NCBI GenBank assembly: GCA_047601145.1
Contig: JASGJW010000009.1
Span: 1-28,551, forward strand
Direction: 5' to 3'
Length of the DNA stretch: 28,551 nt
Source: Hyphomonadaceae bacterium
Lineage (GTDB): Bacteria; Pseudomonadota; Alphaproteobacteria; Caulobacterales; Hyphomonadaceae
Every line of letters starts with the position of its first letter. The stretch's first letter is position 1. The notes below the pieces were generated by a model. That model was not told the DNA's origin and did no database searches. It saw only the letters and a program-made list of their open reading frames with translations. The translations under genes were made by a program, and so were the position numbers. Shown here one piece after another: positions 909-16,023 of the stretch.

Positions 909-1493
909 ATGGAGTCTCCTTTGATGCAAAGCCCTGTCGTCGACATCTCGCAGATCCCTCAGGCTTATTGGCCGCTCATCGACTGGCTGTTCACCGGCCT
1001 CATCGTCCTGGTCGTCCTCTGGATCGCTTCTACGGTCTTCATCGTTTTGCGCCGCAACGCGTCCGGACTTACACCGGTCCAGGCCGCCCGGATCAACAAG
1101 AACGCGCGTCCCGACTTCCTCGATGGCGATCAAAAGAAGCGCAAGGAGGCCCTGGAGCGGGGCGCCGCCTACGACCGCGAGCTTGAAAAGGCGGAAGCCG
1201 AAGAGCGTGAGGTCGAGCGCAGAAAATCCAAGGAGCCGCTCACGGCGACCCAGCGCCTGATGCGATTGTTGAGCCTCGTCATGGCGCTGTTCTCGCTTGC
1301 AACACTGATCGGCAGCGTGATCTTCCAGATTAACTACATCAGCGGCCTGCTGGAGCAGGCCTCGGCTGGCGACCAAATAATCCAGTTGGTTTTGCGCCAT
1401 CCAATCGGCGTCACGATCGCGGTCGTCGTCATCCTCTATCATGTCGTGACCTTCGTCACCGATAAGAAATGGAAGCCGGCCGAGCAGGTCTGA
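909..1493 (+). CDS. hypothetical integral membrane protein: 1 N-terminal TM, a charged coiled-coil loop, 2 C-terminal TM
   Basis: ATG at 909 with GAGG 8 nt upstream (alternative ATG at 924). The hydrophobic segments are LIDWLFTGLIVLVVLWIASTVFIVL, LLSLVMALFSLATLIGSVIF and PIGVTIAVVVILYHVVTFV. A KR/E-rich loop (KKRKEALERGAAYDRELEKAEAEEREVERRK) separates them. It is the first gene of the module. Confidence 0.6.
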   Translation: MESPLMQSPVVDISQIPQAYWPLIDWLFTGLIVLVVLWIASTVFIVLRRNASGLTPVQAARINKNARPDFLDGDQKKRKEALERGAAYDRELEKAEAEEREVERRKSKEPLTATQRLMRLLSLVMALFSLATLIGSVIFQINYISGLLEQASAGDQIIQLVLRHPIGVTIAVVVILYHVVTFVTDKKWKPAEQV

Positions 1494-1534
1494 TCCGCTC
1501 GCGCCGAATCCCTGACATTCCAGAAAGCTTCATC

Positions 1535-3133
1535 ATGTCCAGCAAGACCCTCCTTGTTAGCGATCCCTCGCTCGTCGCCGAGTTCGTGCGCCAGTCCGAA
1601 TTTCAGGGCATCCTGGAAAAGCGGTTCGCGGTGCCCGAAGATTATCTCGCCATCCTGTTCCGCAACGGCAAAATCGTGGACGCTTACAAGGGCGCTCACT
1701 TCTCCGTTGGCGGGCTTGTGAATTCCCTCAAGGGGATCATTGGCGGCTCAACCAGCATCGGGATGTTGATTGCTGACCTGAAACCATTCCAGGTCAGCCA
1801 GACATTCCGCGCCCTCTCGCAGGACAAGGTGGAGATCGTCGGCGTCGCCGCCATAGAACTTCAGCTGGACCCCGAACAGCCGCAGAATATTCTAGGCATG
1901 ATGTCGGGCCGCCGTTCGCTTTCGCGTGCGGACATTCTTGCTCGCATACGCCCGCACTTATCCGATCGCATTCTGGAAGCCGTCCTGGCGCGTCATGGCG
2001 CGCTGGAGATCCGCGGCAATACCGGCCTGCAGGATAAGATCCAGGCTGACATCATGAAGGAGGTTGAGCGCGTTGTTGGCGGTCTCGGCATCATTGTGAA
2101 CGCCGTATCGATGGAATGGGCGGTCAACGAAGTCGAGCGCAGCGCCATGGATAGCGCGGCGGCCGATCGGGCCGAAGCTGAACGTGAAGTTGCAATCAAG
2201 CGGGCGCTGCGCGAAGCCGAGCGCGTAAAGGATGCGACGGAATTCGCTATCCGCACCGATATAGACCAGAAGAAGTTCGCGCTGGTCAAGGAGCAAGAGC
2301 TTGCTCAGCTCATCCTCAACAAGGAGGTCGAGTTCGTGGACCTGCGCGAGGCGCACCAGCGTCGCCAGGAACTCGAGGTCATCGAGCACGAGGTCAAAAC
2401 ACTTCAGGCCGAACGCGAAGCGCGTTTCGAGAATGAACTGGCCGAAGCCCAGCAAATCCAGGATCTCACTCAGCGAAAGCTTGCGATCAAGAAAATCGAG
2501 CTGGAAATCGAGAAGATGGAGCGCCTGTCGCGCCTCGATCTGGAAAAGATCGAAGCCCTGACGCGCATCGAGATCAACCAAGCCTCTCAGGCCAGTGCGG
2601 CGCAGAATATCGCAACGCTCGCCGGGATCGAGCAGCAGCAGGATGAGCAACGCTCCAACTTGCGGGAAAAAGAAAAGCAGGCCCAACACGAGCGCGACAT
2701 CATCGCGACGAAAGTTGGCAACCAGGCAGAATACGACCTTCTGGCGCTCAAGGGAAAAATGACGCCCGAGCAACTGCTTGCGCAGCAGGCTGGGTTAAGC
2801 CCTGGCGTTGCCGCTGTTCTCGTGGAGCAGGCAAAAGCGCAATCTTCGTCCAAGGACGAAGTCATGCACATGATGCGTGAGCTGGTCGACGCGGCCAAGG
2901 AAGCGCGTGTTTCCTCTGAACAGCAAGCCAAGGCCATGTTCCAGATGGGTATGGACGGCGCGGTGGGAATCGCTTTTGGCGCAGGCGGCAAATCCGCCGC
3001 GCCGGCAACCGCCGCCGAAGCTGCCGGCCGCACGCCGGCTGCAGCTGTCGACATTGATTGCCCAAAGTGCGGCCGGACGAACGCGCCCAAAGCACGCTTC
3101 TGCGCCGGTTGTGGCCATCAGCTGCGGACCTGA
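1535..3133 (+). CDS. SPFH/band-7 (flotillin-like) protein without TM, with long E/A/R-rich coiled coil and C-terminal Cys4 zinc ribbon
   Basis: ATG at 1535 (MSSKTLLVSD). The N-terminal ~230 aa have SPFH-like features (GKIVDAYKGAHFSVGG ... DLKPFQVSQTFRALSQDKVEIVGVAAIELQLDPEQ). A ~250-aa heptad-rich EAxR/K segment follows, as in flotillin repeats. The protein ends with CPKCGRTNAPKARFCAGCGHQL. The stop at 3131-3133 lies 2 nt before the next ATG. The ORF track starts it at 1469 with a non-ATG codon. Confidence 0.65.
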   Translation: MSSKTLLVSDPSLVAEFVRQSEFQGILEKRFAVPEDYLAILFRNGKIVDAYKGAHFSVGGLVNSLKGIIGGSTSIGMLIADLKPFQVSQTFRALSQDKVEIVGVAAIELQLDPEQPQNILGMMSGRRSLSRADILARIRPHLSDRILEAVLARHGALEIRGNTGLQDKIQADIMKEVERVVGGLGIIVNAVSMEWAVNEVERSAMDSAAADRAEAEREVAIKRALREAERVKDATEFAIRTDIDQKKFALVKEQELAQLILNKEVEFVDLREAHQRRQELEVIEHEVKTLQAEREARFENELAEAQQIQDLTQRKLAIKKIELEIEKMERLSRLDLEKIEALTRIEINQASQASAAQNIATLAGIEQQQDEQRSNLREKEKQAQHERDIIATKVGNQAEYDLLALKGKMTPEQLLAQQAGLSPGVAAVLVEQAKAQSSSKDEVMHMMRELVDAAKEARVSSEQQAKAMFQMGMDGAVGIAFGAGGKSAAPATAAEAAGRTPAAAVDIDCPKCGRTNAPKARFCAGCGHQLRT

Positions 3134-3135
3134 TT

Positions 3136-4386
3136 ATGCCCGTTTCCGCTTCCCCCTCGGGCGCTGCGCTAGCCGACCTCAGCCATTTCGGGGTTTCCAG
3201 CCTCGTTGTGGATCACCTTCGGCCGAAATGCTGTCGGGCGAGTGCGCGTAGCTCTGCGGATGCGGCTTACTGCAACGAATGTGGAAACCTCATTCTACGT
3301 TGCGCAGCCTACGAGGAGTGCGGCGGTCTCGTTGATGAAACGGGTTTCTGCCCCTCCTGTTTCAACCTCGAGTCATTTCTCGATTCCGGCGCTGTTCGCC
3401 ACGCGAAGGTTGGCTCCTCGATGACGTTGCCGCTCATATTCCGCAATGCGGGCGGTCACGGGCGCGCGTTGTTTGCATCCGAGCTGTGGATCCGTCAGGG
3501 AGCGGGCGAGCGCGTACGCCAGCCGATTCCCTGGGAGCGGCTGAATGCGGGGCAAAGCGCATCATGGACGTTGCAGACGCAGCCCCTCCAGCAGACCGGC
3601 CGCCAGAGTTTCGAGGTTATTCTCGTCGTCGCCAGCCGTGCTCGTTGGCGCGAGGAAAAGTTCGCTCTTGCCGCAAACATGGAAATCGGCGTCGAGGACG
3701 ATGGTCGGGTCGTCGTAAATCAGACGATCAACGTGGCGGGCGGCGAAGTGGCAGGTGCGGGCCACACGGTCTACGCGCCGATCCGCATCGAGTCAGACAG
3801 CCGCAGCCACGTTCAGGAACAGGGCTCCAAAGATCCTTCCCCGCTTGCGCTTTCGCGGGCGGACGGCTTCGAGCGTGAGCGGCGCCTTCGTGGGACGACA
3901 CACGGTCTGGTCGACAGGACGGTCAAGCTCGAATGGAAGGGATTTTCCCCCGATGAGGCCGGTCCGCTCGGCCCTATCATAACGTCGGATGGAATGCTCG
4001 CGCTTGGCCGATCGCGCCTCAAGTCACAAGAGGGCGTAACCGACGTGCGCCTGACGGTTCGCGATGCCGCCGGCAGGCTCAACAGGGTTCTGAGCGAAGA
4101 GATTTCGCGCCGCCATATCGATCTGTTTGTTCAAAACGGCGCCCTTTGCGTACGGGCTTCGGGCAAGGCCGGTCTGAGAGTGAACGACCAGGGCCTGCGC
4201 CAGGGAGAAGTCATCGCCCTGGGGGATGGCGACCGTCTCGTCGTGTTGCCGCGCCGTCCCACGGCGCTGGCGCTGGACGTCCGCTTTGAAGTTCATCACG
4301 GCGTTGTCGAACTAGTGACGCTGACACGTGTGCCGGCCACGCCTGGCGAGGCCTCCTCAAACATTCGGATGAGAGCAGGATCATGA
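3136..4386 (+). CDS. zinc-ribbon / FHA-domain protein
   Basis: ATG at 3136 (MPVSASPSG). The N-terminus is Cys-rich (CNECGNLILRC ... CGGLVDETGFCPSC). The C-terminal ~100 aa match FHA hallmarks: LGRSRL..(G-R), SRRH (S-R-x-H), a NG..VN-type loop (SGKAGLRVNDQGL) and a GD..L motif (GEVIALGDGDRLVV). The stop TGA overlaps the next start (ATGA at 4383-4386). Confidence 0.6.
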   Translation: MPVSASPSGAALADLSHFGVSSLVVDHLRPKCCRASARSSADAAYCNECGNLILRCAAYEECGGLVDETGFCPSCFNLESFLDSGAVRHAKVGSSMTLPLIFRNAGGHGRALFASELWIRQGAGERVRQPIPWERLNAGQSASWTLQTQPLQQTGRQSFEVILVVASRARWREEKFALAANMEIGVEDDGRVVVNQTINVAGGEVAGAGHTVYAPIRIESDSRSHVQEQGSKDPSPLALSRADGFERERRLRGTTHGLVDRTVKLEWKGFSPDEAGPLGPIITSDGMLALGRSRLKSQEGVTDVRLTVRDAAGRLNRVLSEEISRRHIDLFVQNGALCVRASGKAGLRVNDQGLRQGEVIALGDGDRLVVLPRRPTALALDVRFEVHHGVVELVTLTRVPATPGEASSNIRMRAGS

Positions 4387-5957
4387 AGTGTCCGCATTGC
4401 TCCGTTGCGGTTCCCGAAGACGCGCGTTTCTGCCCCGAATGCGGCAAGCGCATAACCGGTGCGATGGCCGATGCTTCGGCGTCCATGTCGATGCAATCCG
4501 GTCCCGTGCTCACATTCGGCGGGTTGCAGACGATGGATGGGCCTTCCTCGCGCGCCTCCAGCACGGGTTCGACGGAGGCGTTGCTTGAGCCAGGCGATCT
4601 GTTCGCGGATCGCTACGAGATCAAAGCGGTTATTGGGGCAGGGGGGGCGGGCGTCGTCTATGCGGCGCGCGACAAGGTCACATCCGAAGACGTCGCGCTG
4701 AAACTTATCCGACCTGACCGCCTGCATGGGAGCGACGCCGTCTCGCGGCTGGTGCGCGAAGGCGTCACGGCTCGGGGCGTTCGCCACCCTAACGTGATCG
4801 CTGTCTATGACGTTGGAGAAGCTGATGGTCAGCCCTACATGTCGATGGAGCTGGCACAGGGACAATCCCTGAGATCGTGGAACCAGAAACGGCTTGCCGC
4901 GCGCCGTGACTGTTCGTTGAAGACAGCTGCGGTCATCGTGTCAGCGATCCTTGACGGCCTTGAGGCGGCTCACGCGAAAGGGATCGTCCACCGCGATCTC
5001 AAGCCTGAGAACGTGATCCTGACGAGCGAGCCGTCGGATGAGGGCGTCACTCTCAAGATACTTGATTTCGGCATCGCCATCGCGGTTGGCGCGACCACAG
5101 GAATATCGGGTTCCGGGCCTGCAGGCTCGATTGGTTACATGGCGCCTGAACAACTGACGGCCCCCGACACGGTCGGCCCCTCGGCGGACCTCTATTCCGT
5201 TTCGGTGATCTTCTACGAATTGCTGATGGATGCCCCGCCGCAGGGTCACTGGCAGCCGCCCAGCGGCGGGCGCTCTGGTATTTCAGCCGGAATTGACAGC
5301 TTGATCGAGAACAGCCTGTCAAACCGAGCGCGAAGCCGGCCGCAATCGGTTGCCGACTATCGCAAGGCTATGAAAGCCGCACTCGGCCCGATGGGCATGG
5401 TGGACTGGAAGACACTCTATCAGCCGCGTCGCAGCAAGTTGCCGACAAATATCCCAAAGTGGGTGTGGTGGACCGCGGGCATCATCATCGGCCTTAGCGT
5501 GATTGCTTACCTGATGGACGAGTATTCCGGCGCCAGCGGGGGCGACTATGATCAGTACGGTTCGGTGACGCCGGCGACGGCGGTTGGGACAGCGCCCGAG
5601 GGCGCCGTCAAGCAAACTGCCGTCACCGTCCCATCACAGAGGCCAGCTCCCTCGCGTCTTTCGGGTTCGTGGGACGACGGCGCCGGCTCGATCTGGCGGG
5701 TGAACGTCACCGATGGCGGGCAGGTTACCGGTCAGGCGACATCCGGAGCTGCGACGGGGATGGTCATGACGGGCGCCTTCGCCGGCGACCAGTTCAGTTT
5801 TCAGTCGGGCGTCAACGGCTATGGCGCGACGGTGCAGGGCCAAGGGCTCTTTGACGGCGGCTGCCACATCAATTTTCAGTCCTATGACGCTGGAACTGGC
5901 CTGACGTCGGCTGGGCAGATTCATGTCAATCACCCCGCAGGAGCGCCATGCCCATGA
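4383..5957 (+). CDS. Hanks-type Ser/Thr protein kinase: N-terminal zinc ribbon, kinase domain, single TM, extracytoplasmic Gly/Thr-rich domain
   Basis: MKCPHCSVAVPEDARFCPECGKRI is a zinc ribbon. Kinase motifs present: GAGGAGVVY (P-loop), VALK, HRDLKPENV, DFGIA and GYMAPE. The TM segment is WVWWTAGIIIGLSVIAYLM. A ~150-aa C-terminal domain lies outside the membrane. Confidence 0.8.
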   Translation: MKCPHCSVAVPEDARFCPECGKRITGAMADASASMSMQSGPVLTFGGLQTMDGPSSRASSTGSTEALLEPGDLFADRYEIKAVIGAGGAGVVYAARDKVTSEDVALKLIRPDRLHGSDAVSRLVREGVTARGVRHPNVIAVYDVGEADGQPYMSMELAQGQSLRSWNQKRLAARRDCSLKTAAVIVSAILDGLEAAHAKGIVHRDLKPENVILTSEPSDEGVTLKILDFGIAIAVGATTGISGSGPAGSIGYMAPEQLTAPDTVGPSADLYSVSVIFYELLMDAPPQGHWQPPSGGRSGISAGIDSLIENSLSNRARSRPQSVADYRKAMKAALGPMGMVDWKTLYQPRRSKLPTNIPKWVWWTAGIIIGLSVIAYLMDEYSGASGGDYDQYGSVTPATAVGTAPEGAVKQTAVTVPSQRPAPSRLSGSWDDGAGSIWRVNVTDGGQVTGQATSGAATGMVMTGAFAGDQFSFQSGVNGYGATVQGQGLFDGGCHINFQSYDAGTGLTSAGQIHVNHPAGAPCP

Positions 5958-6448
5958 TGCGCTCGCTCATCTTCCCTGGGCTGATTGTGCTCGTCGCCTG
6001 CGGTGAAGCTCCTTTCAAGGCGCCGCGACCGGAAGCGTCCGATCTAGACGGCGCTCCACCAAAATCGATCGCATTCCCCTCGGGAGACTGGACCGACGAT
6101 TACGGTGATTTGTGGAAGGCCTCTGTAGACGAGGGGAAAGTTTCCGCCGTCGCCTCCTGCGGTCCGCGACTTGGCTCGGTGCTTTCCGGCAACGTCGCGG
6201 AGGGCGTTCTCGACTGCAGGATCAGCGATGGCGCAGGCGCTGAGTACGCCGCGGGCCGCGCCCAGCTGATCAACGATCGACATGCGTTCTTCGAAACCCG
6301 CTTTAAGGACGGCAGCGCCACTTCCGAAGGCCTGCTGCACCTCCTTCATGATGCTCCCGTGCGAAAGTCCGGCCCAACCTCCTCGACAGCCTGCGTCGAA
6401 ATCCCGGTTCCCCCGCCGCTGGCGGCCCCGACAAATCCGACGCCCTGA
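5948..6448 (+). CDS. lipoprotein paralogous to the kinase extracytoplasmic domain
   Basis: ATG candidates at 5948, 5954 and 5957, overlapping the kinase stop. The signal peptide carries the lipobox LVA-C (MPMMRSLIFPGLIVLVACGE). SGDWTDDYGDLWKASVDEGKVSAVAS aligns with SGSWDDGAGSIWRVNVTDGGQVTGQAT in the kinase C-terminus. Confidence 0.6.
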   Translation: MPMMRSLIFPGLIVLVACGEAPFKAPRPEASDLDGAPPKSIAFPSGDWTDDYGDLWKASVDEGKVSAVASCGPRLGSVLSGNVAEGVLDCRISDGAGAEYAAGRAQLINDRHAFFETRFKDGSATSEGLLHLLHDAPVRKSGPTSSTACVEIPVPPPLAAPTNPTP

Positions 6449-6481: not shown

Positions 6482-7444
6482 ATGAGTGAGATGTGGAAAT
6501 CCTATCGCCTCGATACCTGCTTGTTCGAGCCGCCCTCGATCCAGGCGCCCATCCTGCGCGCCACCGCCAGGATTTCAACGCTTCCGCCGCGTGTCGACCT
6601 GAGGCCGCTCTGTTCGAAGGTGGAAGACCAGGGTCAGGTTGGCTCCTGCGCGGCCAACGCCGTCGTTGGCGCGCTGGAGTATCATCAGCGCAAGGCCGGT
6701 CTCAACGTGACCGATCTTTCGCGACTGTTCGTCTACTACAACGCCAGAAATATGGCCAACAAGACTGCGGAAGACTGCGGCACGATGATCTCGCACGTGA
6801 TGGCCTCCGTCCTGGCCTTCGGCGCCTGCGAGGAGCGCTTGTGGCCATACATCGAAGCCATGTGGCCTGAAAAGCCGACACAGGCCTGCTATGGAAACGC
6901 GCTTCGCTATGAGGCGGTGTCTTATGCGCGCGCGCCTTTGGGCGATGCGTGCCTGATAGCCCTGGCGCAAGGCCTGCCGATCGTGTTCGGCACCTTCCTG
7001 CCGAGTGATTTCTATGGTGTCGCCGCGCAAACGGGTGTCGTGCCCGAGGTCAGCGAAAGCGTGGAGGCGCCAGGCGGAGGACACGCAATGCTGCTGGTGG
7101 GTTACGATCTGCCGACGCGCACCTGGCTGGTTCGCAACAGCTGGAGCGAGAAGTTTGCAGACCGGGGCTATTTCCGCATCCCTTTTTCAACGCTCAACAC
7201 CTATTCAATGCCTGATGGGTTCTGGACGATCGGAGCCATTGAAGTTCTCGAGGGCGTTCAGTTGCACGGTCTGGGCGTGCGGGAAGCGATGCGCGCTGCC
7301 AGCATGGCCGCCCCTAACGATGTCGAGAGCAGCCTCGAGCGGTTACGCAAGAATATCCGCAAGAAGCTGAACACTGATCTTGAAGAGAAGAGGAAAGACG
7401 TCCGTGACCGTTTGCGCGGCCCAGGTGTCGGAGGAGGCTACTAG
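6482..7444 (+). CDS. papain-like (family C1A-type) cysteine peptidase, no signal peptide, with C-terminal basic/coiled extension
   Basis: LPPRVDLRPLCSKVEDQGQVGSCAANAVV aligns with papain [31 protein letters not shown], with Gln19 and catalytic Cys25 conserved. GGHAMLLVGYD matches GGHAV..VGY, the catalytic His. VRNSWSEKFADRGYFRI matches the NSWG..WG..GY Asn motif. There is no N-terminal signal peptide, and the disulfide Cys22 equivalent is Val. Confidence 0.75.
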   Translation: MSEMWKSYRLDTCLFEPPSIQAPILRATARISTLPPRVDLRPLCSKVEDQGQVGSCAANAVVGALEYHQRKAGLNVTDLSRLFVYYNARNMANKTAEDCGTMISHVMASVLAFGACEERLWPYIEAMWPEKPTQACYGNALRYEAVSYARAPLGDACLIALAQGLPIVFGTFLPSDFYGVAAQTGVVPEVSESVEAPGGGHAMLLVGYDLPTRTWLVRNSWSEKFADRGYFRIPFSTLNTYSMPDGFWTIGAIEVLEGVQLHGLGVREAMRAASMAAPNDVESSLERLRKNIRKKLNTDLEEKRKDVRDRLRGPGVGGGY

Positions 7445-7621: not shown

Positions 7622-8434
7622 CTACTTCCTGCCCAGCCGCGCCAGCAGCTCAGCCTTTTTCGCTTCAAGTACAGCGTCCAGACCATTCATCGCAGCGGCT
7701 GGTGGTTTGCCGGGGCCGGACCTCGTCGCTGCCAGCGCCTCGCGGGGTGAAACGACTTTTGGCGGTTTCAGTGGTCCCATGGGCGGGATGGGCGCAAAAT
7801 GCGTGGAGGCAAGATAGCCTCCACCTGCGCCTTGGCCCGCCATGGAACCTGGCGCGATGACTTGCAGTTCACCGGCGACGGTCACCAAAGTCTTCAGCAC
7901 CGCGTTGCGGCCGGAGATCATAACCATGGTCTCGCCGGGCGCTTCCGGGATGAAGGCATGCTCCATCTGGTCGCGTCCGCGGGGGAAAAGCCGGAAGATG
8001 CCGCCGTTGGCGCCATAGAGTTCAATAACCACAGAGTGCAGGTCGCGAAGACCCCGCATGCGGTACCGCCACTCACGGCCGGCTTCCGTCTGCCTTGGGG
8101 CTTCGACGTCGATAATGTAGCCCCCGCCGGCGCCGGGCCCATCATCACCCGCACGGGCGCCAGAAGTTGCGGCTACCGTGAAGCTATGGCTGGCCCTTGC
8201 AATCGCTGTTCCGAACTCATCCTGCGCAATCGCATCTATGCGTTCTGCTCCGGGAAAGCTCATGCCTGCGCTGTACGAGAGGGATGTGGCGCCCCGCGTC
8301 TCCTTGATATCAAATCCCACATTGCCGGAGATACCTGCCACGTCGAACTTGATCGAATACGCATCGCCAAAACTGGCGGCTGTTACGGTGATCGAGCCGT
8401 TGTCCGAAACACGCGATGGACCCGTAAGATGCAT
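7622..8434 (-). CDS. hypothetical glycine-rich protein, no signal peptide
   Basis: ATG at 8434-8432 (minus strand) has AGGAG 7 nt upstream. The translation MHLTGPSRVSDNGSITVTAASFGDAYSIKFDVAGISGNVGFDIKETRGATSLSYSAGMSF... has two GAGGGY motifs and a helical basic tail (LEAKKAELLARLGRK). The ORF track extends it to 8731 without a credible start. Confidence 0.5.
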   Translation of the reverse strand: MHLTGPSRVSDNGSITVTAASFGDAYSIKFDVAGISGNVGFDIKETRGATSLSYSAGMSFPGAERIDAIAQDEFGTAIARASHSFTVAATSGARAGDDGPGAGGGYIIDVEAPRQTEAGREWRYRMRGLRDLHSVVIELYGANGGIFRLFPRGRDQMEHAFIPEAPGETMVMISGRNAVLKTLVTVAGELQVIAPGSMAGQGAGGGYLASTHFAPIPPMGPLKPPKVVSPREALAATRSGPGKPPAAAMNGLDAVLEAKKAELLARLGRK

Positions 8435-8643
8435 TTGAAACTCCTGCCGGCCGCATTGGCCCCAACAGGGAAGGCGCAGGATCCGCCGGGAACGGGCCAA
8501 GTCGCCGCCTTTTTTTTGATGAATTTTGGGCCGCGCCCGACCGGCCATCCGCCAGACGCCTTGCGGGCGCAGGTAAAATGAAGTGAAATCAGGCCGCTGG
8601 TTCTCTGGCGGGCGCGCAATCAAAGGGGACGTTGGCGCCTGTC

Positions 8644-8667
8644 GAACGAGTGGGTTGCCGGGTCTGA
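8644..8667 (+). promoter_or_regulatory. candidate ECF-type (autoregulatory) promoter, GAAC -35 / GTCTGA -10 like
   Basis: tcGAACgagtgggttgccggGTCTGAtat lies ~50 nt upstream of the proposed GTG start of the ECF sigma gene and resembles GGAAC..N15-16..GTCT ECF promoters. It is a weak match. Confidence 0.2.
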
Positions 8668-8718
8668 TATTTGTTCCGGGGCGGCCCGCGGGGAGAATAC
8701 CGCAACAGGGGTAGGCGC

Positions 8719-9261
8719 GTGGGCGGTGCAAACAGCGACGAGGAGAAGGGGGCCGGGCGGGCCACCCATCGGGACGCCTTGCTGCGCGAACATTATGACG
8801 AGTTTCGCAGGGTAGCTGGCCGGGTCCTCAATGGGGACGCCAAGGTGCTGCAGATTCAGCCGACCGATCTCGCGCATGAAGCAGTGATCCGTCTCTCAAA
8901 GCTCAATCAGATTGACCTCGAAGGTCGCACGCATTTTCTTTCGCTCTCGGCGCGCGTGATGCGTCAGATCCTGATTGACGAAATTCGCCGGGTGCGCGCA
9001 GCCAAACGTAAACCGCCCACGATTGTCACGCAGCTTCCGCCTGAGCTGGGCCACCAGTCAGTTGATCTTGAAGATCTCGACCGTGCTCTTACAAAACTGG
9101 AAGCGATTGCCCCTGACCATGCCCGTCTCGTCGATCAGCGTTATTTTGCCGGCCTAACGGTTGAACAGATCGCCGTGGTTGAAGCGACGTCCGTCAGCAC
9201 TGTGAAGCGCCAATGGCGAGCCGCCCGCGCCTGGCTGCTTGCGGAACTTGGCGCGCGATAG
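8719..9261 (+). CDS. ECF-family RNA polymerase sigma factor (sigma-70 regions 2 and 4)
   Basis: Region 2-like DLAHEAVIRLSKL and region 4 HTH LVDQRYFAGLTVEQIAVVEATSVSTVKRQWRAARAWL. GTG at 8719 is chosen because an upstream candidate promoter would otherwise sit inside the ORF. The ORF track starts at TTG 8671, so the start is uncertain. The stop lies 3 nt before the next ATG. Confidence 0.65.
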   Translation: MGGANSDEEKGAGRATHRDALLREHYDEFRRVAGRVLNGDAKVLQIQPTDLAHEAVIRLSKLNQIDLEGRTHFLSLSARVMRQILIDEIRRVRAAKRKPPTIVTQLPPELGHQSVDLEDLDRALTKLEAIAPDHARLVDQRYFAGLTVEQIAVVEATSVSTVKRQWRAARAWLLAELGAR

Positions 9262-9264
9262 GTC

Positions 9265-11697
9265 ATGAACCATCCGCTGACCCGCCGCGCTCTTGATATC
9301 TTCGAGCAAGCCCTCGGAATTGATGAGGCGGGGCGGGATCTTTGGCTCGCAACAATTTGCGCAGGCGATGCCGCGTTGGGCAGCGAGGTCCGACGTCTTC
9401 TAGCCGCGGATGCGATCGCCGAGCGAGCCCTGCCGACCGGTGATCTGCAGCCCCGTGACGGGCCTATCCCCGAACACATTGGCCGCTACCGCATTGTCGA
9501 GCGCCTTGGACAGGGCGGCATGGGCGATGTCTTTGCCGGAGAGCGTGATGACGGCCTCTTTGACCATGCCGTCGCTATCAAACGCGTGCGTCCCACGCTT
9601 TTTGCTGAAACCGCCAAATCTTTGTTCGACCGCGAACGCCGCGCGCTGGCAACTCTCAGTCATCGGCATATCGCGCAGTTGTTTGACGGGGGCGTAGATG
9701 AGACCGGCGCGCCCTATCTCATCATGGAACTCGTCCGCGGTGTCTGCATTGACGAATTTGTGCGTCAGCATGACCTTTCACCGCAAAAAATCGCGGCCAT
9801 GATGATCGCGGTCTGTGATGCTGTTCAGCATGCCCACCAGAAGCTCATCGTTCATGCCGATCTCAAGCCAGCCAATATCCTCGTGAACGAAGCGGGCGAT
9901 CCCAAAGTCGTTGATTTCGGCGTTGCGCGACTGATTGGGGAAGGAGGCGAGGGCGGGATCTATCCCCATACGCGAGGCTATGCCAGTCCGCAGCGCGCGG
10001 CCGGCGCTGCGCCAACTCCCGCCGATGACGTCTATGCGCTGGGGGCAATTCTGTGCGTCCTCCTTACGGGCGAGCCCCCTGAGAGCGGTAACGCACTCCT
10101 CACGCCTTCGCGCGTGACCGAGCGGTCAGCTGCTTTTACCGATCGCTCCGCCAATTGGCTCCGATCACGGGCGCGCGAAATGCGGGGCGATCTCGACGCC
10201 ATCATTGCACGGGCCTGCGCTGAAAATGCCGAAGACAGGTATCCCGCCGCCCACGCCCTCTCTGCCGATCTGCAGGCCTGGCTCGAATTTCGCCCGATCG
10301 CGTCCAGGTCTGAAGACACCTTCTATGTCTTTCGAAAATTCGTCCGCCGTCGCCGCTGGCGAGTGATTGGGGGCGCCACATTTTCCATCGCGCTCATCAC
10401 TGCGCTCATCGTCACTGTGTTGCTCTATACTCAAGCCGACTTTCAGCGTCGTCAGGCTGAGGCGCGTTTCGATGAGGTGCATTCGCTCGCAAGGTATTTG
10501 TTATACGATGTCTATGACCGGCTCGAGCAATCCCCCCAGACCCTAGCGATGCGTCGCGACGTTGCCCGCGTGGCTCAGGGCTATCTCGATGTGCTGGCCG
10601 CTGCTCCGTCGGCCCCGCCGGATGTGCTGCGCGAAGCTGCCGAGGGGCTGGTGCGGATTGCCGATCTTCAGGCAGGCCGATCGCGCGCCAATCTTGGCGA
10701 GCTGATCCAGGCTTTGGCAAACCTCGAGAAGGCGAGTGCGATCGCTGCCCGTTTGCCGGAGCACCCGCAGCGGGATGGTTCCACGTTTGCTCTGCGTGCT
10801 GGCATTGCCATTCGCCAGGCGTCCCTGGCGATGAATTCCAATCAGGATTTACCGAGAGCTTCGCGCCTGCTCGATCAGGCCGCGCGAGACATCGCAAAGC
10901 TATCCGACGACGGCAAATTGCGATCAATGCTGACGCTGCAGTTCGAGGTCGAGTCAGCCGTCCTTGCCAACTGGAAGGGCGTCTACGCCGAGGGCGTTCA
11001 GCATGCCCAGCGTGCAATCAATGTTGCGGGTGCTCTGCCCATCAACGCGGCGGATGCCCGCGACGCCCACTATCTCCTGGCGCGCGCGTGGGATGCTTAT
11101 GCGGAGGCCACCTACTACGGCACGGGAGAGGCAGCATCGGTGCCTGCTTACAGCAAGCTCGTGAGCATCGCATCGAGCTATGCGTCATCCCATCCCGACG
11201 ACATGATGGGCGTCAGGATCGCAATCGAAGCTCACTGGGCGCTTGGAACCACCCTCCTCGGCATCGAGCGTCTGCGTGACGGCCTGAGGGAGCTCGATGA
11301 TGCGAACAGGCTCCTTCCCCGGCTGTTGCGGTTCCAGCCCGATGACGAAGGTGCACGTCGGACCCAGCAGATTGTGCTCGGCGCCCGGGCCCAGGCGCTC
11401 GCGATGAATGGGAGGTTCGCCGAAGGGGTGGCCATCCTGAAGGAAAGGCTAGCCTCTGCAGAACAGGCGGCGAGCACGCCAGACGCAGTTGCGGCGGACA
11501 AACGCTCGCTTGCCGTTACAAAGACAATGCTTGCCGATCTTTACGCCGATTCAGGTCGCGCTGGACCCGCGTGCACGCTCTATGACGAGGCCGATGCGAT
11601 CTTTTCTGGCCTTGAAGCGCAGGGTCTTCTGTCTCAGCTTGACCGGGACAGCGCTCAGCGGATGGCGCGCGAGCAGAAGGACAAATATTGCCGATGA
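9265..11697 (+). CDS. membrane Ser/Thr protein kinase (HAD variant of HRD) with C-terminal TM and large helical repeat (TPR-like) domain; likely partner or regulator of the upstream ECF sigma
   Basis: Kinase motifs LGQGGMGDVF, AVAIKRV, HADLKPANIL and DFGVARL, plus an APE-like GYASPQ. The TM segment is VIGGATFSIALITALIVTVLLY. A ~400-aa helical C-terminal domain lies outside the membrane. It is translationally coupled to the sigma gene. Confidence 0.75.
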   Translation: MNHPLTRRALDIFEQALGIDEAGRDLWLATICAGDAALGSEVRRLLAADAIAERALPTGDLQPRDGPIPEHIGRYRIVERLGQGGMGDVFAGERDDGLFDHAVAIKRVRPTLFAETAKSLFDRERRALATLSHRHIAQLFDGGVDETGAPYLIMELVRGVCIDEFVRQHDLSPQKIAAMMIAVCDAVQHAHQKLIVHADLKPANILVNEAGDPKVVDFGVARLIGEGGEGGIYPHTRGYASPQRAAGAAPTPADDVYALGAILCVLLTGEPPESGNALLTPSRVTERSAAFTDRSANWLRSRAREMRGDLDAIIARACAENAEDRYPAAHALSADLQAWLEFRPIASRSEDTFYVFRKFVRRRRWRVIGGATFSIALITALIVTVLLYTQADFQRRQAEARFDEVHSLARYLLYDVYDRLEQSPQTLAMRRDVARVAQGYLDVLAAAPSAPPDVLREAAEGLVRIADLQAGRSRANLGELIQALANLEKASAIAARLPEHPQRDGSTFALRAGIAIRQASLAMNSNQDLPRASRLLDQAARDIAKLSDDGKLRSMLTLQFEVESAVLANWKGVYAEGVQHAQRAINVAGALPINAADARDAHYLLARAWDAYAEATYYGTGEAASVPAYSKLVSIASSYASSHPDDMMGVRIAIEAHWALGTTLLGIERLRDGLRELDDANRLLPRLLRFQPDDEGARRTQQIVLGARAQALAMNGRFAEGVAILKERLASAEQAASTPDAVAADKRSLAVTKTMLADLYADSGRAGPACTLYDEADAIFSGLEAQGLLSQLDRDSAQRMAREQKDKYCR

Positions 11698-11886
11698 TCC
11701 CCTCAGGAAGCGCTATTTGAGCCGACAGCTCTGCCTGTCAGACGAGAGCGTCTACTCCCCCCCTGCAGCCAACTCGGTCCTGGCGGTCCGCAACATCTTG
11801 GCGCGACAGCTCGAGGCGCGTTGACCCTTCAGTTGAGCTCCCACGGCTCCTTGCGTTTACGCGTCAGCAACAATCCATGAATAAGG

Positions 11887-11920
11887 TGCTATTAGCATAT
11901 AGATGCAGCGCGGCGCTGCA
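11887..11920. promoter_or_regulatory. two adjacent palindromes upstream of the pilin gene (candidate operator or 5'-UTR hairpin)
   Basis: TGCTA-T-TAGCA at 11887-11897 and TGCAGCGC-G-GCGCTGCA at 11904-11920, ending 20 nt before the pilin ATG at 11940. Confidence 0.3.
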
Positions 11921-11939
11921 GTCGAGCTGGGTTTGCGGG

Positions 11940-12470
11940 ATGGCATCGCTTCTTCGAAGGCTGTTTGAGCCTCACAAGACCGCATTGCGGTTCACGCTCG
12001 TTGCTTTGGCGTTCGGGCTCTCAACCGTTGGCTTGGCCAGCGCCCAGACAGCGACGAGTTCGTTCAACGTCACGGCGAGCGTGCAGAATGCATGCACGAT
12101 CAGCGCGGCTGATCTGGCGTTCGGCGTCTATTCAACGATCAGCGGCGCCAACCTCGATGGCTCCTCGACGATCCAGGTCAAATGCACCCTCAGCGCGAGT
12201 TATGCAGTCTCGCTGAACGCTGGGACGACTGCTGGCGGCTCGATATCGGCCCGCCTGATGACCAATGGGTCAAGCACGTTGGGCTACAATGTCTACACAA
12301 CCAACGGCCGGACAACGGTCTGGGGGGATGGCACAGGCGGATCCTCTTCGGTTGCCGGCACGGGCACTGGCCTTACCCAGAACCTCACCGTCTACGGACG
12401 CATCGCGGGCGGGCAGAACCTCGCTGCCGGCAGCTACTCGGACGTCGTCACAGCAACGATCAGCTTCTGA
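11940..12470 (+). CDS. spore-coat-U (SCPU) domain / Csu-type pilin subunit
   Basis: Signal peptide MASLLRRLFEPHKTALRFTLVALAFGLSTVGLASA|QT. The mature part is Ser/Thr/Gly-rich with paired Cys (NACTIS ... VKCTLS), as in CsuA/B-like SCPU pilins. The alternative ATG at 11877 would give a 58-aa leader and is considered less likely. Confidence 0.65.
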   Translation: MASLLRRLFEPHKTALRFTLVALAFGLSTVGLASAQTATSSFNVTASVQNACTISAADLAFGVYSTISGANLDGSSTIQVKCTLSASYAVSLNAGTTAGGSISARLMTNGSSTLGYNVYTTNGRTTVWGDGTGGSSSVAGTGTGLTQNLTVYGRIAGGQNLAAGSYSDVVTATISF

Positions 12471-12477
12471 GGCCGCA

Positions 12478-13197
12478 ATGAAGAACACCCCCCTCCCGAC
12501 ATTATGTGCGGCTCTGGCGGTGCTCGCACTCCTGGCATCGCCCCAGCCTGGGTACGCCGTGACCCTGTCGCCGCTTACGCTGGTCATGGAGCGCGACAAG
12601 ACGATCGTGACCCTGCATGTCCAGAACGACGACAAAGAGCCGAGGATATTTGAAGTTCAGGCGTTCCGATGGAGCCAGGAAGGCGGGGAAGACAGGCTGG
12701 CGCCGGCGATCGATCTCGTGGTGACGCCGCCGATCGTGAAGCTCGCTCCGGGAGAAGAAAAAATCATCCGCGTGGGCGTCATGAAGAAAGATCGCGAAAG
12801 CAATGGAGAAAAGGCCTACCGACTTCTCCTGCGCGATATTACCCCGACCGAGCTTCAGGCAGGCGAACTCCATCTGCAGATGCAGTACCTGTTGCCACTA
12901 TTCGTGTCGCCTGTCCGACCGCATGGCGGTGTGCAACTGGTCGAGGCCGCCTCGTCAGACGATACGCGCTGCATAAAGATAACGAACACCGGGAATGTTC
13001 ACGCCAAGCTCGTGTGGACGGCGGGAGATGGAGCGCCGGAAAGCGTCTCGCCGACGCAGAAATATGTTCTGGCCGGGGGGCAGACGCTCTACTGTCCAAA
13101 GGTCGCCTCCGCCGAAATGGGGGCCGCGAGGGTTGGCGTTACATCGGCCTATCAGAGCGAGGTGACTTCCTATGAGGTCATGCCGCCCGCACATTAG
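12478..13197 (+). CDS. periplasmic pilus assembly chaperone (PapD/CsuC-like)
   Basis: ATG at 12478 with GAGG 6 nt upstream. Signal peptide MKNTPLPTLCAALAVLALLASPQPGYA. PapD-like features include TPPIVKLAPGEEKIIRV (PP..L.PGE...RV). The ORF track start at 12265 overlaps the pilin and is rejected. Confidence 0.75.
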   Translation: MKNTPLPTLCAALAVLALLASPQPGYAVTLSPLTLVMERDKTIVTLHVQNDDKEPRIFEVQAFRWSQEGGEDRLAPAIDLVVTPPIVKLAPGEEKIIRVGVMKKDRESNGEKAYRLLLRDITPTELQAGELHLQMQYLLPLFVSPVRPHGGVQLVEAASSDDTRCIKITNTGNVHAKLVWTAGDGAPESVSPTQKYVLAGGQTLYCPKVASAEMGAARVGVTSAYQSEVTSYEVMPPAH

Positions 13198-15535
13198 GGA
13201 AAGCTACCTTCTTCTGACCAGCTGTCTCATGGCCATCACGGTCAGCCAGCACGCTTCAGCGCAGGAGCAGGTATCAGCCTCGCCGCTTGATTCCTCAGGC
13301 GGCAACCCCGACGAAATCCTTCTCCTCGAGCCGCGGATCAATGAGGGTGCGCCGGACCCGCCGATTTTTGTCGTGCGTCGCGCAGGCCGCCTCCTGCTGC
13401 CGACAGATTATCTGCAACGTCACGACTTCCTGTTTGTCGGCGCGGGCGAGAACATTGGAGGAGATACCTACGCCCCAACTGGAGACATCGCCACGTTCAG
13501 CGCCCGGATCGATGAGGCTCGCGGTCTCCTCAGCATCACGTGCGAGGCCGCCTGCTTCAGCGGGGCGAGCCTTGCCGTCAGTCGCGCTCATATCGCTGCC
13601 GTTTCGCCGATCGAGCCTGGCGCCTTCGTCAATTATGACGCCTATGCGGAGGCTGGCGATGCTGGTCCATCCTCCGGCGCGTTTGCCGAGGTTGGGGTGT
13701 TCTCGGATTTTGGAACGGGTGTCACCGGGCTATTCTGTTCGCATCGCGCAGACGAGAGTACTTGCGGCCGGCTGGAGACGAGCTGGACGATCGATGATCC
13801 CGCAAGCGCGCGTCGGCTGGTGCTGGGCGATGCCCTTACACAAGCCGCGCGATGGGGCGCGCCGGCGCGGTTTGCGGGGATTAGCTGGGGAACGGATTAC
13901 TCTCTCCAGCCCGACTTCGTCACGTATCCGACGCCGGTCGTGTCAGGGGACGCAACGCTCGCCAGTTCTGTTGACGTCTACATAAACGATGCATTGCGGT
14001 TCCAGTCGCCGGTGTCCGCAGGGCCGTTCCGTATCACGGACATTCCCGTCATCACCGGTGAGGGAAGCGCGCGCGCCGTTGTGACGGATCTCCTCGGGCG
14101 CGAGCAGACAATCACGACGGCGTTTTATACAGCCCCCGAAATGCTTCGGCGCGGTCTCGACAAGTATGGCGTTGAGGCTGGCCTACTCCGCAAGAATTTT
14201 GGAAGCGAGAAGGACGCCTATCAGGATCCCTTTCTGGCCGCGGGCTATTCACGCGGCCTGTCGGATGACGTGACAATAAGCCTTCGATCCGAACTTGGCT
14301 CGCGGCAACAATCGATTGGCGCCTCGGCGATGATGGCGAAGACGGGGTTTGGACAAAGCGAAGGCGCTCTTGCGTTTTCCGGGGGTGAGAGCGGGGAAGG
14401 AGCGCTCGGCCGTTTTGCCCAGGATTTCAGGTCGCCACAGGTCACGATTGGCGGCGTCATCACAGCAGCAACGCCAGGCTATCGCACCTTCGGCTCGGAT
14501 CGGCCGATCGCAAGGCTCGCCTCAAACGTCTTTATCGGCTTCAACAGCGAACAGTACGGTTCTGCTTCTTTCAGCTGGGCGTATCGTGATGAGCGTTACG
14601 ACGAAAATTTTTCTGCGATCGGCATCAACTACGCCGCCAGGATCATGGGCGCATCGATATTCCTGACGGCGTTGCGAACCAGCTCTGCCCAGGAGGGCTA
14701 TTTTGGCTCGCTGACGATTTCCGTTCCACTGGGTGGTGGGAGCTCGGCTTCTTCCGGCCTTGAATATGACGGCAGGCGTCTTGGCGCAGACCTGCGTCTT
14801 CAAAGCGATGTGCCAGTATCGGGTGGCATTTCCTACCGGGCGCGGGTCGCCTCGGGAGGCGTTGATCGCGCCGACGCGGGCCTCACAGGGCGCGGACCAT
14901 TCGGGGATCTCTCGGCGGATTTCAGCAGCGCCAATGGCGAGGAAGCGTTCCGGCTATCGGCGCGCGGCGGGCTTGCTGCGGTCGATGGCGAGTTGATTTC
15001 GGCTCCCACCATCGGCGGGGGTGTCGCCGTGGTCTCCGTTGGACGCCAGCCGGGCGTTCGTGTGTTCCATGACCGGCAGCTGGTTGGCGTGACCGACGCC
15101 GAGGGCAAGATCATCGTTCCCGCCCTGCGTTCATTCGAGCGCAATGTGATCTCCTTCGATACGGAAGACCTGCCGCTTTCGGTCGATTTCGACGCGACCG
15201 AGCTTGTCGTCACGCCTGGTTATCGCACTGGCCACAAGGTTGCGTTCAAGGCGAGCCAGACATTCAGCATGATGGTCAGGATATTCACCGAGGATGGCGC
15301 TCCATTGCCGACGGGAGCATCGATGATCAATGCCGATACGGGCGAGATCTATCCCGTAGGCTCCGATGGCGCCGTGTTCATTCCTGGTGCAGGCAAGAAG
15401 GTGCGGCTCGATTATGAGGCTCCGTTCGAGCGGTGCGACGCAATCATTGTCACGCCGGACGAACCAACGTCCGTCCCTGTCTGGGATGGAGGCACGCTGG
15501 TCTGCCACAGATCAGCACTGCAGGCGCTGCGATGA
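13172..15535 (+). CDS. outer-membrane fimbrial usher (CsuD/FimD-like)
   Basis: 787 aa. Signal-peptide-like N-terminus (LLLTSCLMAITVSQHASA|QE). It sits between the chaperone and a second pilin gene, with size and beta-rich composition typical of ushers. It overlaps the chaperone end by 26 nt and the next gene by ATGA. Confidence 0.7.
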   Translation: MRSCRPHIRESYLLLTSCLMAITVSQHASAQEQVSASPLDSSGGNPDEILLLEPRINEGAPDPPIFVVRRAGRLLLPTDYLQRHDFLFVGAGENIGGDTYAPTGDIATFSARIDEARGLLSITCEAACFSGASLAVSRAHIAAVSPIEPGAFVNYDAYAEAGDAGPSSGAFAEVGVFSDFGTGVTGLFCSHRADESTCGRLETSWTIDDPASARRLVLGDALTQAARWGAPARFAGISWGTDYSLQPDFVTYPTPVVSGDATLASSVDVYINDALRFQSPVSAGPFRITDIPVITGEGSARAVVTDLLGREQTITTAFYTAPEMLRRGLDKYGVEAGLLRKNFGSEKDAYQDPFLAAGYSRGLSDDVTISLRSELGSRQQSIGASAMMAKTGFGQSEGALAFSGGESGEGALGRFAQDFRSPQVTIGGVITAATPGYRTFGSDRPIARLASNVFIGFNSEQYGSASFSWAYRDERYDENFSAIGINYAARIMGASIFLTALRTSSAQEGYFGSLTISVPLGGGSSASSGLEYDGRRLGADLRLQSDVPVSGGISYRARVASGGVDRADAGLTGRGPFGDLSADFSSANGEEAFRLSARGGLAAVDGELISAPTIGGGVAVVSVGRQPGVRVFHDRQLVGVTDAEGKIIVPALRSFERNVISFDTEDLPLSVDFDATELVVTPGYRTGHKVAFKASQTFSMMVRIFTEDGAPLPTGASMINADTGEIYPVGSDGAVFIPGAGKKVRLDYEAPFERCDAIIVTPDEPTSVPVWDGGTLVCHRSALQALR

Positions 15536-16023
15536 CCGTTCTGGCCCGCATGGGTTGGCTTCTCATTTTCTGGCTGGCCTCGGCAGGACCTGCCAGCGCG
15601 AGCTGCGTTGGCGTCAAGTGCACATGTTCGGTCACCGGCAACACGATCAGCTTTGGGAGTTACGCGCCAACGGCGCCAGGCGACGTGAAGGTTGCGGCCG
15701 ACATCAGCGTCACCTGCAAGGCTTTCGTGCTGGGCGTGATTTCCTATGAGATACAGCTTGGTCCAGGGATTTACGGGACCCTCTCGGACCGCAAGATGAG
15801 CAATGGCGCCAGCTTGCTGTCGTACAATATCTATACGAACGCAGCCCGCACGATCATCTGGGGTGACGGCGCGGGCGGAACCGGCGTGGTGGGCGATTCC
15901 TATCTCCTTGCCCTCAACGCAACGCGCACGGAGACGGTGTCGATGTACGCCAAGCTGGGCGCAGGACAGAATGTCAGTGCTGGTTCGTACTCGGATACGA
16001 TCGTCGCCACAGTCGTCTATTGA
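15532..16023 (+). CDS. second SCPU-domain pilin-like subunit (minor or tip subunit)
   Basis: ATG at 15532 overlaps the usher stop (ATGA). Signal peptide MTVLARMGWLLIFWLASAGPASA. It has Cys pairs (CVGVKCTCSV ... VTCKAF) and a C-terminal GSYSDTIVATVVY that parallels the first pilin's GSYSDVVTATISF. Confidence 0.7.
   Translation: MTVLARMGWLLIFWLASAGPASASCVGVKCTCSVTGNTISFGSYAPTAPGDVKVAADISVTCKAFVLGVISYEIQLGPGIYGTLSDRKMSNGASLLSYNIYTNAARTIIWGDGAGGTGVVGDSYLLALNATRTETVSMYAKLGAGQNVSAGSYSDTIVATVVY

Follow-up and report, generated by a model that had tools for sequence, protein, structure and literature searches.

A predicted avidin-like barrel shared by the ectodomain of a Hanks-type kinase and the lipoprotein encoded immediately downstream in a Hyphomonadaceae genome

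In Mycobacterium tuberculosis, the PknH-like extracellular sensor domain also occurs as free lipoprotein or secreted paralogues, and the structure of the PknH sensor features a V-shaped cleft as well as two disulfides (PMC4118811). The window analysed here, that is, the complete 28.5-kb contig JASGJW010000009.1 (28,551 nucleotides) of a Hyphomonadaceae metagenome-assembled genome, follows the same logic of a receptor and a kinase-less copy in a different phylum: the C-terminal domain of a Hanks-type Ser/Thr kinase recurs in a predicted lipoprotein encoded immediately downstream of it. Given the PknH-like precedent, lipoproteins that repeat a kinase sensor domain are nothing new as a type, and the arrangement is less unusual for a bacterial Hanks kinase than an earlier note on this DNA (below, the sequence-only reading) had held. 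The PknH fold is, however, unrelated to the avidin-like barrel predicted here, and neither barrel of the window matched the PknH_C-like family or any other family in Pfam. In mycobacteria, the lipoprotein genes are not known to lie directly behind the kinase gene with an overlapping stop and start. What is new in the present locus is the avidin-like fold with three His residues, the adjacent overlapping genes, the unannotated family, and the surrounding cassette; a literature search on the cassette and on avidin-like kinase sensors found no relevant description.

Lipid-anchored periplasmic proteins that report to or modulate a signalling protein of the inner membrane are known from the pairs NlpE–CpxA and RcsF–IgaA. 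NlpE and RcsF resemble the lipoprotein considered here in the role proposed for it below, but they are not paralogues of the periplasmic domain of the sensor, and CpxA and IgaA belong to phosphorelay systems, unlike the Hanks-type kinase of the window. In eukaryotes, pseudo-receptors such as BAMBI are kinase-less copies of an ectodomain that can titrate the ligand or form inactive heteromers; this analogy concerns the mechanism only, with no homology and with a different anchoring and cellular context. As for the fold, the avidins (streptavidin, rhizavidin, agroavidin, shwanavidin, and bradavidin) share with the domain described here the G-x-W-x-[ND]-x-x-G...G-x-[FLV]-x-G pattern and an extracytoplasmic location, whereas the barrels of the present family are predicted to be membrane-tethered, serving a kinase as its sensor module or forming part of a lipoprotein in a signalling operon.

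One unannotated domain occurs in two paralogous copies, one making up the final ~100 residues of the kinase and the other the lipoprotein core, and paralogy and fold taken jointly can be regarded as practically certain. BLASTP aligned the kinase C-terminus (aa 427-519) with the lipoprotein (aa 45-136) at 37.4 bits and an E-value of 8e-9, with 25 of 93 residues identical (27%) and one gap; tblastn returned the same pairing in nucleotides (5661-5939 vs. 6080-6355) and no third copy of the barrel in the window. The Smith–Waterman score of the pair, 98, lies ~13 standard deviations above that obtained when either sequence was shuffled (30 +/- 5, maximum 69) and was reached by none of 4000 shuffles. 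The profile alignment that had been proposed as a check on homology, performed with hhalign on 17 lipoprotein homologues against 26 kinase ectodomains, neither set containing the window sequences, was far from insignificant: it gave a probability of 99.5% and an E-value of 3.7e-22 over 97 columns. The paralogy claimed in the sequence-only reading is thus borne out, and the residue numbers given there are right within a few residues; the extent was underestimated, since the two proteins resemble each other over all ~95 residues of the domain, about double the ~50 residues quoted.

Modelling of kinase aa 420-524 with AlphaFold2 from a 73-sequence alignment gave a confident structure of eight consecutive antiparallel strands (predicted local distance difference test, pLDDT, 95.3; predicted template modelling score, pTM, 0.86). 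Nearly all of the top 50 Foldseek matches of this barrel were streptavidins, at a probability of ~1.0, and the only significant sequence matches of the family profile in the Protein Data Bank (PDB) were avidins, namely avidin, rhizavidin, and agroavidin at E-values of 4e-4 to 9e-3, over strands 1-5 only. The motif of strands 1-3 in the family, alsGtWtddlGnvwqv.svsgnGrvsGt, has its counterpart in avidin as SLTGKWTNDLGSNMTIGAVNSRGEFTGTY. On the strength of these structural and profile matches, the domain is predicted to be an eight-stranded up-and-down barrel of the avidin/streptavidin type and a divergent member of the avidin superfamily. The model shows the eight-stranded antiparallel up-and-down barrel of the avidin family (PF01382), as well as the eight-stranded barrel with G-x-W in strand 1 that characterises the lipocalins/calycins in the broad sense; a sequence match to PF01382 at the curated threshold is absent, and the set of biotin-binding residues of avidins (Asn, Ser, and Tyr of strands 1-3, Trp/Phe of strands 5-8, and Asp/Asn of strand 8) is not kept as a whole in the family consensus, whose C-terminal half cannot be reliably aligned by sequence. 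The lipoprotein, folded without an alignment, gave eight strands of the same number and order (aa 46-131), at a pLDDT of 49.6 that makes its coordinates unusable for a fold search. The structure predictions proposed in the sequence-only reading have therefore come out confidently for one barrel and in strand order for the other, and since there is only one confident model, the sameness of fold rests on homology and strand topology, not on two independent models.

In an alignment of 73 sequences of both barrel types, numbered after the 105-residue kinase-barrel model, W11 (strand 1), H95, and H98 do not vary at all, while conservation reaches at least 90% at H76 and G45. Of the three conserved His sites, H76 opens strand 7, H95 lies at the end of strand 8, and H98 follows H95 by three residues (strand 7 being residues 76-83 and strand 8 residues 88-96 according to DSSP), and H76/H95/H98 correspond to H495/H514/H517 of the kinase and to H112/H131/H134 of the lipoprotein. 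Judging from the strand limits and the hairpin register of the model, H76 and H95 should be cross-strand neighbours, while the residues alternating with them, I77/I94 and F79/V96, are presumably the hydrophobic set that faces inward. The His pair and H98 would then lie on one face, at the barrel end holding the N- and C-termini, and the three His residues may bind a ligand. Barrels of the kinase type (K-type) possess a Cys pair, C75 and C104, which would tie strand 7 and the C-terminal tail together, in keeping with a location in the oxidising periplasm. Barrels of the lipoprotein type (L-type) have neither Cys: HAxF replaces CHIxF, and HFNH occurs without PCP. One Trp, three His, and an optional disulfide are the candidate functional residues of the family.

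Both barrels are predicted to be extracytoplasmic, as the sequence-only reading had assumed, one on the transmembrane (TM) helix of the kinase and the other on a putative lipid anchor, with the lipoprotein gene following immediately. The kinase is arranged, from the N- to the C-terminus, as a zinc ribbon (aa 2-23, Zn_Ribbon_1 in Pfam), a kinase domain, a single TM helix, a flexible linker, and the barrel. Its kinase domain (aa 78-288) matches Pkinase with an E-value of 3.5e-41 and 141.8 bits (cutoff 31.7), and the VALK, HRDLKPEN, DFG, and APE motifs, all legible in the translation, place the protein among the Hanks-type kinases. Basic residues before and acidic residues after the TM helix fit an N-in/C-out orientation, which would put the 146-aa C-terminal region, including the barrel, into the periplasm. 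The N-terminus of the lipoprotein, MMRSLIFPGLIVLVAC, fits the lipobox pattern [LVI][ASTVI][GAS]C of signal peptidase II substrates, the lipobox Cys being invariant in 18 of 18 aligned homologues, and a linker of ~25 aa separates the predicted lipid anchor from the barrel. Of the two possible starts of this gene, the ATG at 5954 is likely the true one; it yields the 164 aa of the NCBI entry QM773_21615, annotated as a hypothetical protein, and overlaps the kinase TGA (5955-5957) to form ATGA. All coordinates are collected in Table 1.

The same ATGA overlap, built on the conserved final Pro codon of the kinase, is present in all 11 lipoprotein-bearing loci examined, and in the nine loci where the start of the downstream peptidase gene was found, the lipoprotein stop lies -4 to +33 nt from it. 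The kinase and lipoprotein genes are thus probably co-transcribed and translationally coupled. In a neighbour-joining tree of 55 barrels, the L-type forms a single clade with a bootstrap of 100/100, and within this clade the branching order parallels the one seen among the adjacent kinase barrels (L–L vs. K–K distances, r = 0.92, 45 pairs). The K–L distance is the same within a locus (0.805) as between loci (0.809), which points to one old duplication followed by co-inheritance without gene conversion; the equal distances and the fully supported L-type clade led us to reject recent or repeated duplication as well as gene conversion. As the tree and the alignments indicate, the L-type branch arose once, lost the Cys pair, and gained a predicted lipoprotein signal peptide and a Pro-rich tail. 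Values of dN/dS between 0.13 and 0.26, obtained for pairs with unsaturated dS, show that the lipoprotein gene is functional and under purifying selection, and intact orthologues are present in at least 13 distinct loci.

Members of the domain family are scarcely visible to simple searches. A word-indexed protein search found only the lipoprotein itself with the lipoprotein query and only P0002, a distant secreted homologue of 174 aa that has FDGGCH...HVNHPAGAPCP in common with the kinase, with the ectodomain query. An exhaustive search of 1.84 billion cluster representatives with a three-sequence profile gave 79 representatives at E <= 1e-3, of which 27 at E <= 1e-10, and these fall into four groups. 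The first consists of proteins of ~480-590 aa with an N-terminal zinc ribbon and a barrel at the extreme C-terminus ending in H-x-N-H-x-P-G-x-P-C-P, and those that were looked up are Pkinase-positive kinases. The second comprises lipoproteins of ~150-200 aa resembling that of the window, and the third secreted proteins with a Q/G/P-rich N-terminus; stand-alone barrel proteins overall measure ~135-200 aa. Proteins of the fourth group (~300-390 aa) have a different N-terminal region; P0061, P0066, P0067, P0075, P0077, and P0078, encoded at loci that include L048 and L049, begin with MSD..YDKLA.VL.DVHERFP.DGF... and end in a barrel devoid of Cys, and at L048/L049 such genes adjoin a gene for a VWA-domain protein in a context unrelated to the kinase cassette. 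Two lipoproteins combine two barrels in one chain, an L-type followed by a K-type in P0003 (6001-6831 of locus L002) and two K-type barrels in P0036.

The barrel matches no model of Pfam, NCBIfam, or PADLOC, and in Pfam neither barrel of the window nor P0002 found a match even at E <= 10. In PADLOC, the kinase domains alone matched generic kinase models (PD-T4-6, mad6), while the barrel, the lipoprotein, and the FHA, SPFH, and peptidase proteins encoded nearby matched none; an anti-phage defence system was rejected on this ground. The domain thus represents a new family, which comprises ~80 clusters at 50% identity. Only a small number of sensor domains are known from bacterial Hanks kinases, mostly orphan as to ligand, and the new family adds to them a confident fold assignment, by which the avidin fold would be extended from vitamin sequestration to membrane-tethered signalling.

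Homologue look-ups and a scan of GTDB species representatives with the kinase-type alignment brought together 38 loci, mostly from Hyphomonas, Henriciella, other Hyphomonadaceae, Parvularculaceae, and Sphingosinicella/Allosphingosinicella; the 18 aligned lipoprotein sequences diverge too much for a degenerate-pattern scan of genomes. The cassette of the window is shared by 35 of these loci (L008-L042), as a whole or, where the contig is short, in part. It includes, in this order, genes for a polytopic membrane protein, an SPFH–zinc-ribbon protein, an FHA protein, the zinc-ribbon kinase with the barrel, and a papain-family C1 cysteine peptidase, and a far more divergent kinase from a microbial mat has the same FHA–kinase–C1 peptidase core. 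The lipoprotein gene is inserted between kinase and peptidase in six of the 35 cassettes (L029-L032, L036, and L041), as it is in the window, and it also occurs in the metagenomic loci L001, L002/3, L004-7, and L051. The kinase gene of the other 29 cassettes has the peptidase gene as its direct downstream neighbour, and a search within +/- 9 kb revealed no L-type copy. The lipoprotein is therefore not needed for basic signalling, and its gene is a facultative addition to a conserved cassette, which either lost it repeatedly or gained it by transfer, the neighbour-joining tree being compatible with both. The interpretation offered in the sequence-only reading thus has to be narrowed: its paralogy stands, and the lipoprotein is an accessory absent from most species-level cassettes. 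Cultured Hyphomonas species with the kinase-less paralogue (H. chukchiensis BH-BN04-4 and H. oceanitis SCH89) and without it (H. polymorpha PS728) in the same cassette make the role of the extra copy genetically testable, and the uncharacterised module of kinase, FHA, SPFH, and papain-like peptidase genes deserves attention as a conserved unit.

It is plausible, as had been suggested, that the lipoprotein serves as a co-sensor, decoy, or modulator. Being a kinase-less copy of the receptor ectodomain, its barrel might pair with that of the kinase or might capture the same ligand, metal, or pH signal through the His/Trp surface; either event would tune the self-association of the kinase ectodomain and hence dimerisation and trans-autophosphorylation, and the FHA protein would read the phospho-threonine in the cytoplasm. 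Hanks kinases such as PknB and PknD are activated by dimerisation, and barrels of the avidin family are obligate dimers or tetramers. The idea of pairing draws on this oligomeric nature of avidin barrels and on the fusions of L- and K-type barrels in P0003 and of two K-type barrels in P0036. No homologue of the lipoprotein has Asp at position +2, and in E. coli, lipoproteins without Asp at this position are directed to the outer membrane; if the E. coli rule applies here, the protein would be an outer-membrane lipoprotein that might contact the kinase across the periplasm.

The ATGA overlap, the correlated distances (r = 0.92), the dN/dS values, the retained Trp and His residues, and the P0003 fusion all fit a function of this sort, and we consider it rather probable that the lipoprotein acts in the signalling pathway of the kinase itself. 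That it does so specifically by direct heteromerisation with the kinase barrel is possible but less likely than not. A bolder formulation, in which the His-triad barrel would be a new sensor module of a trans-envelope cassette of marine Alphaproteobacteria and the lipoprotein a decoy or co-receptor heterodimerising through the His face, possibly depending on metal or pH, is put forward tentatively and is, taken as a whole, somewhat unlikely; if true, it would make the lipoprotein a bacterial counterpart of eukaryotic decoy receptors. Several facts weigh against a role in the kinase pathway. The lipoprotein is dispensed with in 29 of the 35 cassettes, and its own 3D model is of low confidence. 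On two short metagenomic contigs, the gene directly upstream of it is not the kinase: in L052 (2-1149), the FHA gene ends at the lipoprotein start with no kinase between them, the contig ending within 150 nt, before any downstream gene can be identified; in L050 (1-1722), the lipoprotein gene is flanked by a DUF805 membrane-protein gene upstream and a C1 peptidase gene downstream. These arrangements hint that the lipoprotein is tied to the peptidase and not to the kinase.

Such a tie would make the lipoprotein an inhibitor, substrate, anchor, or maturation partner of the C1 peptidase, in the manner of staphostatins, small eight-stranded barrel inhibitors encoded beside the papain-like staphopains. 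The peptidase gene indeed follows the lipoprotein wherever the downstream gene can be identified, including L050 with no kinase upstream (in L052 and the L002/L003 pair, the next gene is not identifiable or a 58-aa ORF lies between). Moreover, ~15 of 21 lipoprotein homologues, among them those of loci L002, L004, L007, and L029-L032, have a Pro-rich linker and then, close to the C-terminus, a conserved P-x-[DE]LRP motif that resembles LPxR[VI]DLR[GP] of the peptidase. The DLRP motif is, however, absent from the lipoprotein of the window and its closest relatives, and the peptidase, lacking a signal peptide or any N-terminal hydrophobic segment, should be cytoplasmic, whereas the lipoprotein is exported; this also sets the pair apart from staphostatins and their targets. 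Since the barrel kinase, too, always adjoins the peptidase, the cassette itself accounts for the proximity of the lipoprotein and peptidase genes, and a partnership with the peptidase seems to us distinctly improbable. An origin of the DLRP tail by a tandem duplication extending over the 5′ end of the peptidase gene was likewise discarded, as it would place the motif on the N-terminal side of the barrel, whereas the observed one is C-terminal. More weight, though still that of an unlikely case, may be given to the view that the lipoprotein independently binds or scavenges some small molecule or metal in the periplasm, standing beside the kinase only through its origin by tandem duplication and leaving kinase signalling unaffected. 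Stand-alone secreted barrels with no visible kinase nearby do exist (the Q/G-rich P0002 and P0039; loci L043-L045), and the L-type has diverged somewhat faster than the K-type (mean distance 0.53 vs. 0.45), with the Cys pair gone and a new tail acquired. An independent protein would hardly be expected to keep the ATGA overlap across lineages whose lipoproteins share just 25-33% identity, to follow the kinase in its tree, to retain the Trp and His positions of the other barrel type, or to be fused with a K-type barrel as in P0003.

Are the barrels genuine avidins, with a kinase that senses biotin or a related vitamin and a lipoprotein that sequesters it? Avidins are the best structural matches and the sole significant sequence matches in the PDB, and strands 1-3 carry the avidin motif, including the Asn12/Asn23 position (Asp here) and Ser16/Ser27. 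Residue conservation speaks otherwise: the biotin-contacting Tyr (Y33 in avidin, Y43 in streptavidin) aligns to a non-conserved Gly/Ala/Thr position; no Trp or Phe is conserved past strand 2, where avidins have several biotin-contacting ones in strands 5-8; and strands 7-8 conserve the three His residues, with the Cys pair in the K-type, in place of aromatics. Pfam Avidin found no match at E <= 10, and hhalign of the family against streptavidin and avidin sequences reached a probability of only 65% over the N-terminal 73 columns. Biotin binding is thus highly unlikely, and this reading was rejected on residue conservation. Finally, the similarity might be a matter of chance or composition, or the lipoprotein ORF a decaying, functionless duplicate, for both segments are rich in Gly, Ser, and Ala, and the window, at 62% GC, has many spurious ORFs. 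The shuffles, the hhalign score, the invariant lipobox Cys, the intact orthologues, and the dN/dS values refute this, leaving it a negligible chance. What is retained is a paralogous lipoprotein that probably serves the kinase pathway.

Table 1. Features of the window around the kinase–lipoprotein pair.
Feature	Position	Strand	Basis and remarks
Small polytopic membrane protein, first gene of the cassette	909..1493	+	ORF, hydrophobicity, conserved context
SPFH/Band-7 protein with long coiled coil and C-terminal zinc ribbon	1469..3133	+	PF01145, E 4e-6, 27.4 bits vs. cutoff 23.6
FHA-domain protein with Cys-rich N-terminus	3058..4386	+	Conserved upstream of the kinase; stop overlaps kinase start
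Hanks-type Ser/Thr kinase gene, 524 aa	4383..5957	+	ORF, Pfam PF00069
TM helix of the kinase, aa 360-378, WVWWTAGIIIGLSVIAYLM	5460..5516	+	Kyte–Doolittle; sole segment above threshold
Periplasmic linker of the kinase, ~46 aa, Pro/Ala/Thr/Gly-rich	5517..5654	+	Outside the family profile (domain from aa 425)
K-type avidin-like barrel (predicted), aa 425-524	5655..5954	+	G-x-W, Cys pair (CH.../...PCP), H495, H514, H517
Predicted lipoprotein signal peptide and lipobox L-V-A-C	5948..6001	+	Cys codon 5999-6001; residue +2 is Gly
Lipoprotein gene, 164 aa (ATG 5954) or 166 aa (alternative ATG 5948)	5954..6448	+	ORF
L-type barrel (predicted), aa 43-136 (166-aa numbering)	6074..6355	+	G-x-W, HAxF, H-x-x-H; no Cys pair
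Pro-rich C-terminal tail of the lipoprotein	6356..6445	+	P-x-DLRP of most homologues absent in the window copy
Papain-family C1 cysteine peptidase, no signal peptide	6482..7444	+	PF00112, E 5e-13; constant neighbour downstream of kinase/lipoprotein
ECF sigma factor (8671-9261) and second TM Ser/Thr kinase (9265-11697)	8671..11697	+	Adjoin the cassette in most loci

As regards the upstream genes of the cassette, the FHA ORF, when read from the TTG at 3058, overlaps the SPFH gene by 76 nt, and the ATG at 3136, 3 nt past the SPFH stop, is the likelier start. The PF01145 match of the SPFH protein was obtained with its N-terminal 258 aa; the full-length protein found no match in the PDB by phmmer. 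Zinc ribbons are recognised by Pfam at the N-terminus of the kinase and at the C-terminus of the SPFH protein, and CxxC pairs can be seen by eye in the FHA protein. In L011, L012, L015, L022, and L025, two kinase genes stand in tandem, with the barrel ending the second one only, and the C1 peptidase gene is doubled or tripled in tandem in L002, L025, and L051.

The catalytic domain of the C1 peptidase begins with LPxR[VI]DLR[GP]LCxPVEDQG (window 6575-6650), which corresponds to the "DWR" position of papain. The protein ends with ...GPGVGGGY (7400-7444), and GPGAGGGY and GQGAGGGY occur in the neighbouring 369-aa ORF at 7622-8731 on the minus strand, which matched no family; in L001, a homologue of this ORF is a 168-aa gene directly after the peptidase, on the cassette strand. 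The extracytoplasmic function (ECF) sigma factor usually found near the cassette is of the TIGR02999/PF07638 type and is immediately followed by a TM Ser/Thr kinase of 810 aa, the pair occurring in either orientation among the loci; standing beside this second kinase, it may be a kinase-regulated ECF sigma factor. Further downstream (11877-16023), the window contains a chaperone–usher pilus operon of the spore coat protein U (SCPU) type with two SCPU subunits, a PapD-like chaperone, and an usher.

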